Assembly: GCA_943787795.1 (NCBI GenBank)
Contig: CALSNU010000002.1
Location: forward strand, 736,001 to 800,000
Direction of reading: 5' to 3'
Length of the DNA: 64,000 bases
Origin: an uncultured bacterium
Lineage (GTDB): Bacteria; Planctomycetota; UBA1135; GCA-002686595
The notes under the pieces are model-generated. The model worked only from the letters and a program-made list of their open reading frames with translations. It did no database searches and was not told the DNA's origin. The position numbers and the translations under genes were made by a program. Shown piece by piece: positions 2,840 through 11,573 of this stretch; position 1 is the stretch's first letter; every line of letters starts with the position of its first letter.

Positions 2840-5539
2840 TTGGATACGCGACCGACTCTCTTGCCCTCCCCGGCGGTTCTCTGGACCCTCGCGCTCGGCG
2901 CCCTGACCCTGGGCGGCGGCGTGGGGATGCCCCTGGACGCTGGATCGGACCGCCCTGACTTCGGGGCCCTGCGCCTCGAGGGGGCCCGCCGGTCCCAGTA
3001 CCAGGGCGGCGCGGCTGGGCCCGAGGGTCCGGCGGAGCGCACCACGGACCTCGAGTCGTTCCGGCGCGAGATCGAGCCGCTGCTCGAGTCGGCTTGCCTC
3101 GGGTGCCACGGGCCCGACAAGGAGAAGGGGGGCTTCCGACTGGACGAGCTCGACCCCGACCTCGTCGGGGGTGAGGACGTGGACTGGTGGCTCGATGTGC
3201 TCTCGGTGCTGAGCAACGGGGAGATGCCCCCCGCGGACGGGCCGGAGCTGGCGGCCGCCGACCGCGGCCAGGTCGTGGAGTGGCTCTCCATGGAGGTCCA
3301 GAATGCCTCGCTCGCCCTCCGCGCCCAGGGCGAGCATTCCACCTTCCGGCGCCTCGCCCGCTACGAGTACCGCCACGCCCTGCAGGACCTTCTCGGCCTC
3401 CCGCTCCGCTTCGGCGAGGACCTCCCGCCGGACCCGATCTCGGAGGACGGGTTTCAGAACAGCTCGGAGGTCCTGCACCTCTCGTCCTCCCAGCTCCCCA
3501 TCTACCTGGAGGCCGGCCGCGAGGCGCTCCGCGCCGCCGCCCCCCTCGGGGATCAACCTGCGACCGTGGCCTGGAGCATCTCCATGGACGCGGCGGCGGA
3601 CCGTGAGTGGGAGCACCAAGACAGCCAGCTCGAGGGGGTGCGGAAGAAGCACGAGGCGGCCCCGGCGAAGCTTGAGGAGGAGCTGGGCAAGCTGCGCGAG
3701 CGCTTCGCGCGCCGGCCCGGCGGCGCGCACTTCCAGGACCCCGCGGGCACCCGGTTCGCGGGGATGCGCTGGAACTACAACGGGGCGCGCTTCGCGTGGG
3801 CGCCCTCGGCGGAGGCCCCGTCGCCCCCCGCGAACTCCAAGAGCGTCGCCGTCCTCCCGGCGTGGCACGGGATGACGGTGGAGCTGGGAGACCGCGTGCC
3901 GGACGAGGGGATCCTCCGCGTGCGCGTGCGGGCCTCCCGGGCCTCGGACGAGGATCCGCGCCCTGTGAGCCTGGGACTCATGTTTGGGTGGCAGGCAAGC
4001 AACGACTCCAACGCGGTGTTCCCCGTCACCCACCAGGAGGCCCTGGTGGACGCGCCGCCCGACGCCCCACAGACGTACTCCTGGGACGTGCCCATGGGCG
4101 ACGTCTACCCGCGCAACCTCGCGCGGGGGGTGAACACCATGGGCCAGCTCCCGAGCCCCTCGGAGTTCATCAAGCTGGTGAACCGCTCCCTCTCCGGGCG
4201 GACGCTCCACATCCACCACGTGGAGGTCGAGGGGCCCGTCTTCGACCAGTGGCCGCCGGCGTCCCACCGGTGCATCTTCCACGAGCGGCCGAAGGGGCAG
4301 GCGGAGCGCGCCTACGCAGCGGAGGTCATCGAGCGCTTCATGGCGCGGGCCTGGCGCAGGACGCCGACGAGGCGCGAGGTCTCCCGCAAGGTGGCGCTCT
4401 TCCGCGAGCTCCGCCGGGACACGGGCTCCGTGGAGGAGGCCGTGCTGGAGGTCCTCGCCGTGGTGCTCACCTCCCCGAACTTCCTGTACGTGGTTGTGGA
4501 GGAGCCGGAGGCCGACCCTTCCGCCCCCATCTCCGACCTGGAGCTCGCCACGCGGCTGTCGCTCTTCCTGTGGTGCAGCGCCCCGGACGAGGCGCTCCTC
4601 GAGCGGGCCCGCGCGGGGGAGCTCCGGGAGCCCGGCGTACTGGAGGCGGAGGTGGACCGCATGCTCGCGGACCCGCGGGCCGAGCGATTCGCGGACCGGT
4701 TCGTGGGGCAGTGGCTCAACCTCGCGCTGATGGACAACCTGGAGGTGAACCGCAAGGCCTACCCCGCCTTCGACGACAGGCTCCAGGACGCGATGGTCCG
4801 TGAGCCCGTGGAGTTCTTCCGCGAGCTGCTGCGCACCGATGGGAGCGCCCTGGACTTCATCCACTCCGACTTCGCCATGGTCAACGAGCGCCTCGCGGCG
4901 CACTACGGCATCGGCGACGTGACGGGGAACCACTTCCGGCGCGTGGAGCTGGACCCCGCGGGTCGCCGCGGCGGCCTCCTCGCCCAGGCGGGGCCGCTCG
5001 CCATGAACTCCGACGGCAAGGACTCCCACCCCCTCAAGCGCGGGATCTGGATGCTCGAGAACCTCCTCGACGATCCGCCGCCGCCGCCGCCGCCCGCGGT
5101 GCCGGAGATCGACCTCGCGGACCCCGAGATCGCGAAGATGACGCTCAAGGAGCGCATCGAGGACCACCGCAACGACCCGGCCTGCATGTCGTGTCACGCC
5201 AAGATCGACCCCTGGGGGATCGCCTTCGAGCACTTCGACGCCATCGGCCAGTGGCGCACCGAGGCCGGCGGCCGGCCCGTGGACGCCCGCAGCCTCCTCT
5301 TCAATCAGCAGGAACTGGACGGGCTCGACGGCTTGAAGGGCTTCCTCCTCCTGAACCGCCAGGACCAGTTCGTGCGGGCCCTCGTCCAGAAACTGGTCAC
5401 CTTCGGCCTCGGCAGGCCCCTGAGCTTCAGTGACCGCGCGGCCGTGGACCGGATCACCGCCGAAACCCGGGAGGCCGGGGACGGGCTGGCTACCATGATC
5501 AAGCAGATCGTCACCAGCGACCTGTTCCAGAGCCGCTAG
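2840..5539 (+). CDS. Planctomycete cytochrome c / DUF1587-1595-1592-1588-1585 domain protein
   Basis: CLGCHG and CMSCH heme motifs, RRLARYEY, ELATRLSLFLW, FVGQWL, RGGLL, HPLKRGIW, PPPPPPAVP. Start uncertain: TTG 2840 gives a signal-like N-terminus, while the ORF track opens at 2558. Confidence 0.9.
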   Translation: MDTRPTLLPSPAVLWTLALGALTLGGGVGMPLDAGSDRPDFGALRLEGARRSQYQGGAAGPEGPAERTTDLESFRREIEPLLESACLGCHGPDKEKGGFRLDELDPDLVGGEDVDWWLDVLSVLSNGEMPPADGPELAAADRGQVVEWLSMEVQNASLALRAQGEHSTFRRLARYEYRHALQDLLGLPLRFGEDLPPDPISEDGFQNSSEVLHLSSSQLPIYLEAGREALRAAAPLGDQPATVAWSISMDAAADREWEHQDSQLEGVRKKHEAAPAKLEEELGKLRERFARRPGGAHFQDPAGTRFAGMRWNYNGARFAWAPSAEAPSPPANSKSVAVLPAWHGMTVELGDRVPDEGILRVRVRASRASDEDPRPVSLGLMFGWQASNDSNAVFPVTHQEALVDAPPDAPQTYSWDVPMGDVYPRNLARGVNTMGQLPSPSEFIKLVNRSLSGRTLHIHHVEVEGPVFDQWPPASHRCIFHERPKGQAERAYAAEVIERFMARAWRRTPTRREVSRKVALFRELRRDTGSVEEAVLEVLAVVLTSPNFLYVVVEEPEADPSAPISDLELATRLSLFLWCSAPDEALLERARAGELREPGVLEAEVDRMLADPRAERFADRFVGQWLNLALMDNLEVNRKAYPAFDDRLQDAMVREPVEFFRELLRTDGSALDFIHSDFAMVNERLAAHYGIGDVTGNHFRRVELDPAGRRGGLLAQAGPLAMNSDGKDSHPLKRGIWMLENLLDDPPPPPPPAVPEIDLADPEIAKMTLKERIEDHRNDPACMSCHAKIDPWGIAFEHFDAIGQWRTEAGGRPVDARSLLFNQQELDGLDGLKGFLLLNRQDQFVRALVQKLVTFGLGRPLSFSDRAAVDRITAETREAGDGLATMIKQIVTSDLFQSR

Positions 5540-8056: not shown

Positions 8057-8740
8057 CTACGCTTCCTCCTCTGGACTCCGCCCTTGGGAGCGCAGGGGCG
8101 CGGAGGTCATGCGACGCCACCGGTCGACGAGCCGATCCAACACGTCGTGGATGGGCATGTGCTCGGCCCCTGGGGCGCCCAGCCAGAGCTCGTCGGCCAT
8201 GATGCGGACCTGCCAACCGTCCTCGAACTCGAGGAAGAGGCCGGCCTCCAACCGCTCGTCCACCGGGCCCTCTCCGCCGGAGGGCGCCGGCCCCTCGAGG
8301 TGGAAGAGCAGCTCGCGGCACCGCTCCAGGCCCTGGACCTCGAAGCGCGCGGTGACGTCCTCGCCGAACTGGTGCCAGATCATCCGGCCGGACCAGCGGT
8401 TGGGCCCGCGGTTGGGCCTCTCGGAGTAGGGAGGGATGAGCGGGACGCCCTTGCCGATGACGGTGGCCTGGTCCGGCCCCCCTCGGGTCCACCAGCCCAC
8501 CCGCTCCCGTTGGCGGATGACCTCGGCCGCGTGGATCCACCCGAACTCTCGCTCTGCGAGGATGGCCGAGGGCCACGGCTCGGATGCGCCGCCGTCGGGG
8601 CGATGGCGGAGCTCCAGCGAGGGCACCTGGTCGTCGGTGACGAAGGTCCGGAGCTCATGGGAGCTCCCGAGCCGTTCCATGCGGGGGCCTCCCCTGTCGG
8701 GGATCGGTTGCCCCGGGGCGTGGGCGGTCGGGCGGCTCAT
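8057..8740 (-). CDS. Hypothetical protein (~227 aa), second gene downstream of the SAM riboswitch
   Basis: ATG at 8740 overlaps the upstream TGA (ATGA coupling); globular-looking, Trp-rich sequence; no family recognised. Confidence 0.65.
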   Translation of the reverse strand: MSRPTAHAPGQPIPDRGGPRMERLGSSHELRTFVTDDQVPSLELRHRPDGGASEPWPSAILAEREFGWIHAAEVIRQRERVGWWTRGGPDQATVIGKGVPLIPPYSERPNRGPNRWSGRMIWHQFGEDVTARFEVQGLERCRELLFHLEGPAPSGGEGPVDERLEAGLFLEFEDGWQVRIMADELWLGAPGAEHMPIHDVLDRLVDRWRRMTSAPLRSQGRSPEEEA

Positions 8741-8946
8741 GCGGACGCCTCCCCGCGGGGGCGGAGCAAGAGGTCGCGGAGTTCGCGGGCCTCCTTCACG
8801 TCCTTCGTCCCGAGGGAGACCCTCATGCGGCGCCGCGTGTGGGGCGTGGGCCGGACGGTGTAGTGGCACCACCAGGTCCCGTGGTTGTTCCACAGGTGGT
8901 GGTTCGGGTTGTCCGCGTGGACGCGGATGGCGAGTGTCGGTCGCAT
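8737..8946 (-). CDS. Small basic 69-aa protein resembling an integrase arm-type DNA-binding domain
   Basis: NPNHHLWNNHGTWWCHYTV...RRRMRVSLGTKDVKEARELRD; AGGGAG RBS-like sequence before the ATG; first gene after the riboswitch. Confidence 0.8.
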   Translation of the reverse strand: MRPTLAIRVHADNPNHHLWNNHGTWWCHYTVRPTPHTRRRMRVSLGTKDVKEARELRDLLLRPRGEASA

Positions 8947-9020
8947 GATGCGCTCCCTGGTCAGAGACCCCCTGGGCGCATCAGGAAGCGAGGGGGTCCA
9001 CGGGGTGCGGACGGCTCTCG

Positions 9021-9135
9021 CCGGAGAACTTGTTCACGGGACCTCCCGTGCTCATCGACCCGCTCGAGGGTCTAACCACCTTGGCTCTCCGCGCCAGGTT
9101 GGCAGGTCCGCGAGGGGCGAACCGTTCCTGATGAT
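9021..9135 (-). ncRNA. SAM riboswitch, SAM-I/IV variant architecture
   Basis: Minus strand: P1 UCAUC/GAUGA; AUCAGGAA junction; P2 GGUUCGC/GCGGACC; P3 GCCAACC-UGGC(gcggaga)GCCA-AGGUGGU; P4 GACCC/GGGUC; P5 CACGGG/CCCGUG; PK-2 between L3 CGGAGA (9086-9091) and 3' UCUCCG (9022-9027). Confidence 0.85.
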
Positions 9136-9239
9136 GACCCCTTCATGGCTCCGGAGAACGGATCCCTCAAGGGGCGTCCGTGTCATAAGCGCGCAGACCC
9201 ACGCGCCGGTCTCGATCTCGTCCCGGTGAGGGGCGGCGC

Positions 9240-9563
9240 TCAGTCCTTCCGGCCGCGGAGGCGCAGGAAGAGGATGAGGGGGAGGGGAGAGAGCGCGGCG
9301 ATGTAGTTCAGGGGCGCGACGCCCTCGCCCTTGATCTGGGCCAGGACCACGATGAAGGTGACCACCGGCATCATCGTCGCGTAGATCACCAGGGGGACGG
9401 GCCAGAGCGCGCTCTGGCGAGCCTTCTGGATCACGTCCAGCCAACCGGCCACCACCGTGATCACGATCATGCCCGCGAAGAGGCCCTCGGCGCTGTCGAT
9501 GAGCCCGCCCTCGTTCTGGGGGACGGCGGGGCTGGCGAGGATCGTGGCGAGCAGGGCGTACAT
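9240..9563 (-). CDS. Small membrane protein (signal plus ~3 TM)
   Basis: MYALLATILAS..., three hydrophobic segments, basic C-terminus; GC3-rich codons. Confidence 0.7.
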   Translation of the reverse strand: MYALLATILASPAVPQNEGGLIDSAEGLFAGMIVITVVAGWLDVIQKARQSALWPVPLVIYATMMPVVTFIVVLAQIKGEGVAPLNYIAALSPLPLILFLRLRGRKD

Positions 9564-9907
9564 GGGCGGCAGCGTAGCTGGGTCGGGCGGCTGGGATCGA
9601 GGGACTGGAGGGTTCCCCCCCTGAAGTCGCCTTCGCCTGGGAGGCTGCAGGGGACGCGAGCTGGGCAGGGTGGCAGAAGGCGAGACGATCTGACGCTCTC
9701 CGATCACGGGCCGCTCTGCTTGGCATGCCTTCCCTGCGACCGATGGGGGGCCCTGCGACCGATGGAGGGGCATCCGGCGACACAGGTTGAGACGGAGGCC
9801 AAGGGGACGCTGCAAGCCAAGGGGGATTCCCCTCGTGGTGGGTTCGGCCCCACCCCGAATCTGGCCGCCAAGGGCACACTGGAGCCGTGCTCCACGTCTC
9901 CACCACC

Positions 9908-11573
9908 ATGAAGTCCTCCCTTGTCGCCCTCGCCTCGGCCCTTCTCCTCCACGGGACCAGCGGCGCGCAGGTCCAGTTCGAGGACATCACCGACGCGGCC
10001 GGCCTCGCGGTGCCCCAAGGGGCAGGTCTCCAAATCGGCTTCGGTGCCGGGCTGGAGCAGCTGCAGATGACGGGTGGAGCCGCCGCAGGTGACTTCAACG
10101 GGGATGGCTGGGTGGACCTCTTCGTCACGATGCTCGATCGGCACGACGTGCTGTTCGCGAACCTCGGCGTGGACGCCAACGGCGAGCATCGCGGGTTCCG
10201 AGACGTGACGGCCCGGTGCTTCCCGGCCCCCGGGCCCGGCCCGCGCAGCAACGGCGCGGTCTTCGGGGACATCGACAATGACGGGGACGAGGATCTCTAC
10301 CTCACCTCCGTCGGCACCACGCGCTACCAGCTGTGGATCAACGATGGTGAGGGACACTTCCGCGAGCGGGCGCGCCAGCGCGGCGCCGCCGTGGAGACCA
10401 CGCGCTTTCACTCGGGCCAGAGCCCGGTGTTCGCCGACTTCGACCGGGACGGGTGGCTCGACCTGTACGTGACCGAGTGGGTCCTCATGCACCCCGCCTT
10501 CCCCGTCGCGCCGCACACGCGCCTCCTGCGCAACCTTGGCGCCGCGGCCCCGGGCCACTTCGAGGACGTCACCGCCGCGGCCGGGCTCGACCTCGGGATG
10601 GAGACGGGCTCTAGCGCCCTCGGGAACCCCACCGGCGCGTTCCAGTTCACGCCCCGCTTCTCTGACCTGGACGGGGACGGCTGGCCAGACCTGGCCATCG
10701 CAGGCGACTTTCTGACGAGCCACCTCTTCTGGAACAACGGCGACGGGACCTTCACGGAGGGGACCGCAGCGGCCGGGGTCGGGTGGCGACCAGAACGGCA
10801 TGGGCGCGACCATCGCGGACTACAACGGCGACGGGCTCCTGGACTGGTTCGTGACCTCGATCTACGACCGGGTGAACGATTGCACCCAGGGCGGCTGCGG
10901 GTGGGGTTCAACGGGGAACCGGCTCTACCTGAACACGGGCGCGCGCACGTTCGTGGACTGGACCGATCAGGCGGGGGTCCGAGATGGCGGATGGGGCTGG
11001 GGCGCCACGAGCCTGGACTACGACAACGACGGGGACGTGGACCTGACGATGACCAACGGCATCGACTGGGAGGCCCTCTCCAACGACGACCACTTCATCG
11101 ACGACCCCATGCGCCTGTGGCGGAACGAGCACGGGATCTTCACCGACGTCGCCCAGTCCGTGGGCCTGACCGCGACGGCCAAGGGCAAGGGCTACCTGAC
11201 CCTGGACTTCGACCGCGACGGCGACCAGGACCTCTACGTGGTCCACCACGGCGAGCTCCCCGTCCTCTACGAGAACGTGGGGGGCAACCAGAACGACTGG
11301 CTCCAGCTCGACCTGGTGGGCAGCGCCTCCAACCGTGACGCCGTGGGCGCCTTCGTGATCCTTCGTGCCGCGCCGGGTGCGCCCCAGCAGGTCCGCGAGA
11401 CCAGCCGCGGCAGCAACTTCCTCTCCTCGGATGAGGACCTCGTGCACTTCGGCCTCGGCCCGCCCACCTCCATGGGCACCGTCGTCCGCATCGAGATCCG
11501 CTGGCCCAGCGGTCAGACCACCGTGCTCACGGACGTGCCGCGGAATCAGCGGCTGACCGTCGTGGAGCCCTGA
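9908..11573 (+). pseudogene. CRTAC1-family FG-GAP repeat / ASPIC-UnbV protein, split by a +1 frameshift near 10781-10783
   Basis: Signal peptide; DFNGDGWVDLFV, DIDNDGDEDLY, DFDRDGWLDLYV repeats; C-terminal SNRDAVGA...VHFGLG...IEIRWPSG. Removing one G restores AAAGVGGDQNGMGATIADY. Could be a sequencing error. Confidence 0.8.

Follow-up and report, generated by a model that had tools for sequence, protein, structure and literature searches.

The 64,000-nt stretch of DNA analysed here (the window) carries on its minus strand a compact cassette, in which a presumed promoter and an upstream sequence box are followed by a riboswitch aptamer and two open reading frames. The first of them, ORF1 (8737..8946), encodes a basic protein of 69 aa and the second, ORF2 (8057..8740), a protein of 227 aa, or of 207 aa if translation starts from the ATG at 8680. 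The aptamer ends approximately 75 nt ahead of the AUG of ORF1 at 8946, and both frames overlap in the letters ATGA, from which translational coupling is predicted. This arrangement agrees with an earlier note on this DNA, which had read the locus as a SAM riboswitch controlling two proteins.

A cmscan of positions 8700-9400 returned the Rfam family SAM-I-IV (RF01725) at 9019-9139 on the minus strand with 40.7 bits (E 4.2e-5), as a full-length match over model positions 1-99 and as the top-scoring family of its clan. Hence, the covariance-model search suggested in the earlier note named a best family, but the score stays 0.4 bit below the gathering cut-off of 41.1 bits, which is a curation threshold, and for this reason a scan of the whole window at the Rfam gathering thresholds gave 0 matches. 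The elements of the SAM-clan fold proposed before were all located, namely P1 (9134-9130/9056-9052), P2 (9123-9105), P3 (9103-9075), P4 (9072-9057), P5 (9050-9035) and the 6-bp pseudoknot PK-2 between loop L3 (9092-9086) and the 3' tail (9028-9023). P2 is undivided, P4, P5 and PK-2 are present and PK-1 is absent; an undivided P2, P4 and PK-2 without PK-1 also characterise the SAM-I/IV class in the accessible parts of its descriptions (PMC2864571, PMC6890682). The ligand-core nucleotides in P1, J1/2 and P3 agree with the RF01725 consensus. The GCCAACC/GGUGGU pairing of P3, which had been taken for a deviation from the usual letters, is present and its pairs covary, but GCCAACC/GGUGG is the RF01725 consensus and not peculiar to the RNA of the window.

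The letters AUC, the G of J1/2, CAACC, GGUG and GAU show no or almost no variation in sets of 29 and 61 homologues. In the alignment of the 61 homologues, which had been fitted to the tested structure, 91% of the cells pair and 22 of 30 pairs show changes on both sides, whereas slid registers pair at 32-43% and 0 of 500 shuffles were as good. The longest helix between L3 and the tail averages 5.36 bp among 53 RNAs compared to 4.03 bp (maximum 4.43) with swapped tails, which confirmed the PK-2 of the earlier note; the folding energy of the leader itself is unremarkable (z -1.35). The RNA in the window is a real SAM-I/IV riboswitch and a further member of the known class, with which it shares P1-P5, the undivided P2, the lack of PK-1, PK-2 from L3 to the 3' tail and the letters of the ligand core. 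Judged from this core and from related RNAs located directly before metK (see below), the aptamer very probably binds SAM. It differs from the class, as far as it is covered by the accessible text of Weinberg 2010 (PMC2864571) and PMC6890682, in controlling a putative regulator and not an enzyme or transporter.

The aptamer is the sole RF01725 match in the genome of the window. Its relatives score between 31 and 41 bits, and the gathering cut-off was exceeded in 0 of 57 genomes; therefore, routine annotation misses the whole subfamily, which is exposed here just below the Rfam cut-off. Our own model gave 16 hits in 151 Verrucomicrobiota genomes, 10 of them before the small gene corresponding to ORF1, 3 before another ORF, 1 before a very short ORF and 2 directly before metK. 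The same riboswitch class was also seen before a different uncharacterised protein of 144-190 aa (L238:1694-2125, L240 and L241:1674-2240) in three genomes without the small gene, and two of these proteins were scanned with no family match. Furthermore, extra leader copies lie upstream of the cassette at L129:1624-1749 and L142:962-1101, one lacking any evident gene, the other accompanied by a different short ORF.

ORF1 belongs to a family of proteins of 69-85 aa from Verrucomicrobiota and some Planctomycetota, with near-identical proteins in Planctomycetota records; we counted 398 homologues by word search, and the family amounts to 846 clusters when grouped at 50% identity. The names Opitutaceae and Planctomycetota used here follow record titles or a kinship column. 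The aptamer pattern was found upstream of 141 of the 148 family loci with at least 300 nt of upstream sequence (12 short loci dropped, loci not de-duplicated) versus 0 of 3634 control windows. RF01725 matched 28 of 57 chosen genomes, once each and 28 times beside the small gene, and among relatives of the window's genome it occurred in 8/8 gene-positive and 0/13 gene-negative ones. An even sample of 301 Planctomycetota contained the small gene in 14 genomes, and all 13 other carriers have the aptamer. In the corresponding sample of 151 Verrucomicrobiota the gene was present in 28 genomes, once as a weak match, and 16 of the 27 strong carriers have it without riboswitch. A clade of small genomes (L260-L268, L271-L275) keeps the small gene without riboswitch directly 3' of a short gene, which we take to resemble ribosomal protein bL28. 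We found no description of the small gene, the cassette or the box in the searched literature, outside of which lie most subscription papers, and the accessible part of PMC2474590 adds nothing on the cassette.

The small gene is usually monocistronic and followed by a convergent gene. A co-oriented coupled ORF was seen behind it at 14 of 132 loci, seven of them with ORF2 and the others with unrelated frames. At one locus (L244:1927-2601, genome G130) the coupled ORF has a weak match to S-adenosylmethionine lyase (PF23780, E 3e-4), and the aptamer there is a variant without P4. ORF2 has 9 database homologues, all at least 79% identical, and one diverged copy in a genome of the same genus (L008). 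Its GC3 is normal and its divergence near-neutral, with non-synonymous to synonymous codon changes of 12:11, 28:9, 39:15 and 41:14. No Pfam match was found for ORF2 and no NCBIfam match for ORF1 or ORF2, the structural model of ORF2 reached a pLDDT of 34, and its best Atlas neighbour (0.82) is a homologue. Judged by these comparisons, ORF2 is a weakly constrained, genus-restricted passenger. The expectation that homologues of both proteins follow SAM riboswitches thus held for the ORF1 family but not for ORF2, and the idea of a conserved two-protein module is not supported; the conserved unit consists of the promoter box ATGAC, the riboswitch and ORF1.

Between aptamer and start codon, a strand at 8979..8987 is complementary to the 5' strand of P1 and J1/2, and this anti-P1 helix reaches at least 7 bp in 137 of 138 loci, with changes matched across both strands. 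A hairpin at 8946..8984 (-23 kcal/mol, z -2.3) is predicted to enclose, in the OFF state, the ribosome-binding region together with the nucleotides ahead of the AUG. Calculated without ligand and without pseudoknot, the OFF state with P1 formed (-89.9 kcal/mol) and the ON state with anti-P1 (-90.2 kcal/mol) lie within 0.3 kcal/mol. In the folding model the start region has a mean unpaired value of 0.31 in the OFF versus 0.53 in the ON state; the GGGAG remains largely paired in both, and the opening of the ribosome site is only partial. Leaders from Opitutaceae, read by eye, have two anti-P1 copies, one within a hairpin with a U run behind it and the other paired to bases ahead of the AUG, and the leader in the window has only the latter arrangement. 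Sequence comparison thus indicates an expression platform mutually exclusive with P1. Because of the alternative pairing and the more open start region in the anti-P1 state, SAM most likely turns the gene off, which is the predicted OFF-switch control of an uncharacterised gene that the earlier note had proposed. A promoter and terminator scan of the window gave 0 promoters and 0 terminators. In 4 of 4 runs, contigs from RNA libraries span the leader and the beginning of ORF1 (8836-9140), two of the runs covering little else; these contigs lack strand, one run covers 28 of 30 bins, and they are no proof of transcription.

The closest published layout is DseA of Desulfovibrio vulgaris, where a SAM-I riboswitch precedes DVU1170, a tiny (189-nt) monocistronic hypothetical gene, whose expression falls with methionine, in an organism that bears SahR (accessible parts of bioRxiv 10.1101/803072 and PMC11124144); the likeness is one of layout. 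The same preprint, in its accessible part, reports that the DseA RNA acts in trans on sahR. By analogy, the riboswitch RNA of the window could be the main product and the protein secondary. Such a role would fit the layout shared with that preprint (the genome's only SAM riboswitch, a tiny monocistronic ORF, SahR present), and the terminator of the Opitutaceae leaders would release a short RNA. Nevertheless, we consider it the least probable of the explanations discussed here. The leader of the window has no terminator, the protein is strongly conserved, and when genes were ranked by the duplex energy of the leader with their start regions (metK left out), sahR, metH, the second sahR-like gene and ahcY came at ranks 3471, 2331, 3073 and 3483 of 3536 genes. 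Hence, an action in trans on sahR is unsupported by the duplex ranks of this leader, and DseA further differs in being SAM-I and not SAM-I/IV.

The ORF1 protein has a pI of 11.4 and a Met content of 0.57 per 100 residues compared to 1.77 in the small proteins of the genome, and its synonymous changes outnumber the non-synonymous ones. Its predicted model (pLDDT 75) has strands at residues 18-21, 24-34 and 37-44 and a helix at 50-61, i.e. a three-stranded sheet packed on one helix. The DUF6538 profile scores 21.1 bits on ORF1, under its curated cut-off of 27, a few family members have a precomputed PF20172 hit, and at E<=0.1, 65 of 66 members match DUF6538 and 15 match Arm-DNA-bind_3. In the Atlas, the four named clusters closest to ORF1 consist of arm or N-terminal domains of integrases (0.90-0.91). 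The structure search gave a best Z of 4.2, with arm-type domains tied with PH and PX domains; 3jtz, for example, aligned 49 residues at Z 4.1 and rmsd 2.4, level with the latter. Foldseek gave nothing at E<=0.001, some of its weak rows being dsRNA-binding domains, and the sequence search of solved structures gave no meaningful match. The models thus weakly point to a fold of the integrase arm-binding type. With arm domains and DUF6538 (PF20172, PF13356; 3jtz, 2wcc) and with the AP2/GCC-box fold (2gcc) the protein shares the basic character, the three-stranded sheet plus helix and the pattern W-x-x-x-Y and R-x-R-x-S-L-x-T. In contrast to arm domains and DUF6538, the ORF1 family stands alone with 69-85 aa and an extra invariant NPNHHLWNN segment, scores below the Pfam cut-off, reaches a Z of only about 4 and lacks a catalytic domain. 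Two of nine longer homologues (P0284 and P0285, 38% identical to each other) are sigma-70 factors with the small domain C-terminal to region 4, a position from which it would sit just upstream of the -35 element. ORF1 is a probable DNA-binding activator of transcription.

One small-domain copy was found on a viral contig near a tyrosine integrase (L312:3123-4271 and 4992-5306), without a riboswitch upstream as checked by eye; the N-terminus of this integrase is distantly related and scores 15 bits with the profile of the small family. The whole cassette could also be mobile or selfish, i.e. the remnant of an integrase arm domain with its arm site, which was captured together with a riboswitch and changes its passengers such as ORF2. 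Its patchy spread (9 of 41 relatives, 14 of 301 Planctomycetota), the unrelated coupled orphans downstream, the duplicated leaders in L129 and L142 and the viral copy with its integrase would be in line with such an origin. We regard it as very improbable, since the small gene keeps 60-70% identity across two phyla, almost always in single copy, with stable chromosomal neighbours in Opitutaceae and an excess of synonymous over non-synonymous change. Furthermore, a weak search found no integrase or catalytic domain in the nine longer homologues, nor does the 69-aa ORF1 have one, and box sites occur at methionine genes.

The promoter of the cassette was assigned by eye from relatives; a consensus scan gave 0 sites. 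The presumed sigma-70 promoter (9142..9170, minus strand) consists of the -35 element TTGAGG (9170-9165), 17 nt and the -10 element CATGAA (9147-9142). Ten nt upstream of this -35 lies the ATGAC box (TTATGACAC, 9180..9188, minus strand), a candidate binding site of the small protein. Among 111 diverse cassette promoters, 60 contain ATGACA in one or the other orientation, compared to a shuffle mean of 4.4 (maximum 11), so approximately half of the cassette's own promoters are without box, and 47 of 54 copies are located at -52/-53 or -60/-61. The box position is fixed across distant lineages. It was present in 11/11 Planctomycetota promoters examined (11 of 13 loci) and also in L302, but in 0 of 6 promoters where the same riboswitch precedes other genes, all from genomes in which the protein has no match. 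Genome-wide counts were uninformative (TTATGACA 5 vs 9 and 13 vs 9 in reversed controls), and in the window's own genome the 51 intergenic copies of ATGACA are not above the approximately 59 expected (476 sites, 12% non-coding DNA). A genome-wide excess of the box was rejected as a signal, as it lies largely within genes and probably reflects codon bias.

Outside of the cassette, ATGAC in either orientation was found closely upstream of the -35 in the metX promoters of 18 of 18 gene-positive and 0 of 9 gene-negative genomes, by a rule that was widened after the data had been seen (the first rule gave 3/18). This compares to 48 of 1686 background windows (2.8%) and to 0-1 of 18 for ten control pentamers; the same rule gave 0/11 at metK and 0/10 at sahR. 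In held-out genomes metX had the box in 3 of 8, all Opitutaceae-like, and one more had it outside the fixed window, while the non-Opitutaceae genomes G130, G217, G225 and G060 had none. At metY the box, with the same spacing as in the cassette promoter, was seen in 6 of 22 genomes with the small gene, in 0 of 30 without it and in 0 of 7 riboswitch-less ones, and in two gene-negative genomes a SAM-I-like leader sits directly on metY. Six cysG promoters have the box, likewise ahead of the -35, and single sites exist at metH and cysK; hits of the unselected pattern likewise fell at cysK, cysG, metX and metH. The ATGAC-like letters directly before cysH belong partly to another, palindromic site, hence only the copy facing cysG was counted. 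This palindrome is conserved between cysG and cysH (L523, L524, L528, L530, L531, L533), and we assume that it might be the site of an Rrf2-type regulator. It must be mentioned for all these box statistics that kin are not independent and that most positives belong to one family and the negatives to others; the box could therefore be the site of a different lineage-specific factor.

The latter point leads to the alternative that another conserved activator recognises the box, or that the box is itself an element of promoters in these bacteria, and that the small gene is a doubly controlled member of the sulfur regulon with another nucleic-acid target. In favour of it, the box occurs in both orientations, also at metX, in reverse complement it looks like an extended -10 (TGTCATAA, seen ahead of several unrelated genes), and the comparisons are exact-match only and confounded by lineage. 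We further assume a resemblance of the reverse complement to a PhoB half-site. We rate this alternative as rather unlikely, because the box accompanies the cassette in distant Planctomycetota that lack metX, is absent from all 6 promoters of same-class riboswitches in genomes without the small gene, and the -7 T expected of an extended -10 is not conserved.

The SAM cycle appears to be served otherwise, as SahR-type palindromes or SahR-like neighbours were found at metK, ahcY and metH in the same genomes. SahR-like genes occur in 18 of 27 gene-positive genomes versus 59 of 151 overall, and two exist in the window's genome, whose SahR is a gene separate from ORF1 and ORF2; neither ORF has the SahR/SamR architecture of an ArsR HTH plus methyltransferase-like domain. 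In that genome (G000) a sahR-metH operon with a palindromic site lies at L248:7473-8447 and upstream (C1), and a second sahR-like gene lies ahead of ahcY (L249, C6). SahR-type sites were seen at metK across Verrucomicrobiota, and the literature search found no paper on SahR in Verrucomicrobiota or Planctomycetota. SahR and SamR are described, in the accessible part of PMC4239095, as repressors of the ArsR type, which are themselves the metabolite sensors and recognise palindromes of 20-24 bp at Met/SAM genes; here, in contrast, the RNA would sense SAM and the box is non-palindromic, 5-7 bp long, upstream of the -35 and at other genes. The frequent company of SahR-like genes, together with the dsRNA-binding domains among the weak Foldseek rows, could also mean that the small protein acts by protein or RNA contact, either as anti-repressor of SahR or as an RNA- or ribosome-binding translation factor at low SAM. 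We think this improbable, as 9 of 27 carriers have no SahR match, the SahR-type promoters of metK and sahR have no box, and the box and the sigma fusions would be left unexplained.

Hence, we favour, with somewhat better than even confidence, a SAM-OFF riboswitch that controls a self-activating activator of genes for de novo methionine and sulfur metabolism, which acts beside SahR. This model builds on what was computed, namely the aptamer with its two alternative pairings, its linkage to the small gene, the box at promoters and, weakly, the fold type; from these we infer that the small protein binds DNA, that it is the binder of the box, and that it activates and does not repress. In the presence of SAM, P1 and PK-2 would form and the downstream hairpin would cover the start region in the window, or would act as a terminator in Opitutaceae, and the protein would not be made. 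When SAM is absent, the 5' strand of P1 would pair with the anti-P1 strand and the protein would be produced. It would then occupy the ATGAC box, which lies roughly one turn of the helix ahead of the -35, boost its own weak promoter and switch on metX, often metY and cysG, sometimes metH and cysK, while the SAM cycle would be handled separately by SahR. The earlier statement of no recognisable role in Met/SAM metabolism stands insofar as ORF1 is no Met/SAM enzyme or transporter, but beyond this it probably does not hold for ORF1, whose features suggest a regulator of methionine and sulfur genes. WhiB7 and class II activators are likewise small, self-activating, gated by a 5' leader and bind just upstream of the -35; ORF1 differs from WhiB7 by the lack of an Fe-S cluster or AT-hook, by a different fold and by a metabolite riboswitch as gate.

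A more far-reaching version of the preferred model, which we hold only tentatively and at less than even confidence, would see a new stand-alone activator family, in which the arm domain of a phage integrase was domesticated together with its arm site and became the sole output of a SAM riboswitch in many PVC bacteria. By positive feedback it would strengthen the low-SAM signal and pass it on to a methionine/sulfur regulon; one riboswitch would replace the many found before single genes in other bacteria, and the fusions to sigma region 4 would reflect polymerase recruitment. If the preferred model holds, a widespread unannotated small protein would obtain a function and a new family of transcription factors a predicted site, and a cascade from riboswitch to activator would govern methionine synthesis, with labour divided between it and SahR. 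One switch could thus steer a whole gene set in little-studied bacteria, and the small gene that follows the SAM riboswitch in Desulfovibrio, so far unexplained, would gain a testable model.

For the genome of the window itself the picture is narrower. Searches of its assembly, which is 85% complete, left metX, cysH and cysG without a match and yielded for metY only distant paralogues; of other gene-positive Planctomycetota, 0 of 5 had metX. The metX rule fits 14 of the 2280 upstream regions of the genome, none of which was recognised as that of a Met gene. By these searches the cassette itself appears to be the only clear target, with ORF2 as passenger, and the circuit may be limited to itself and ORF2, or may reach targets with variant sites. 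Apart from the cassette, an FG-GAP repeat gene on the plus strand of the window (9887-11573) seems to be split over two frames near 10800, possibly by a frameshift or an assembly error.
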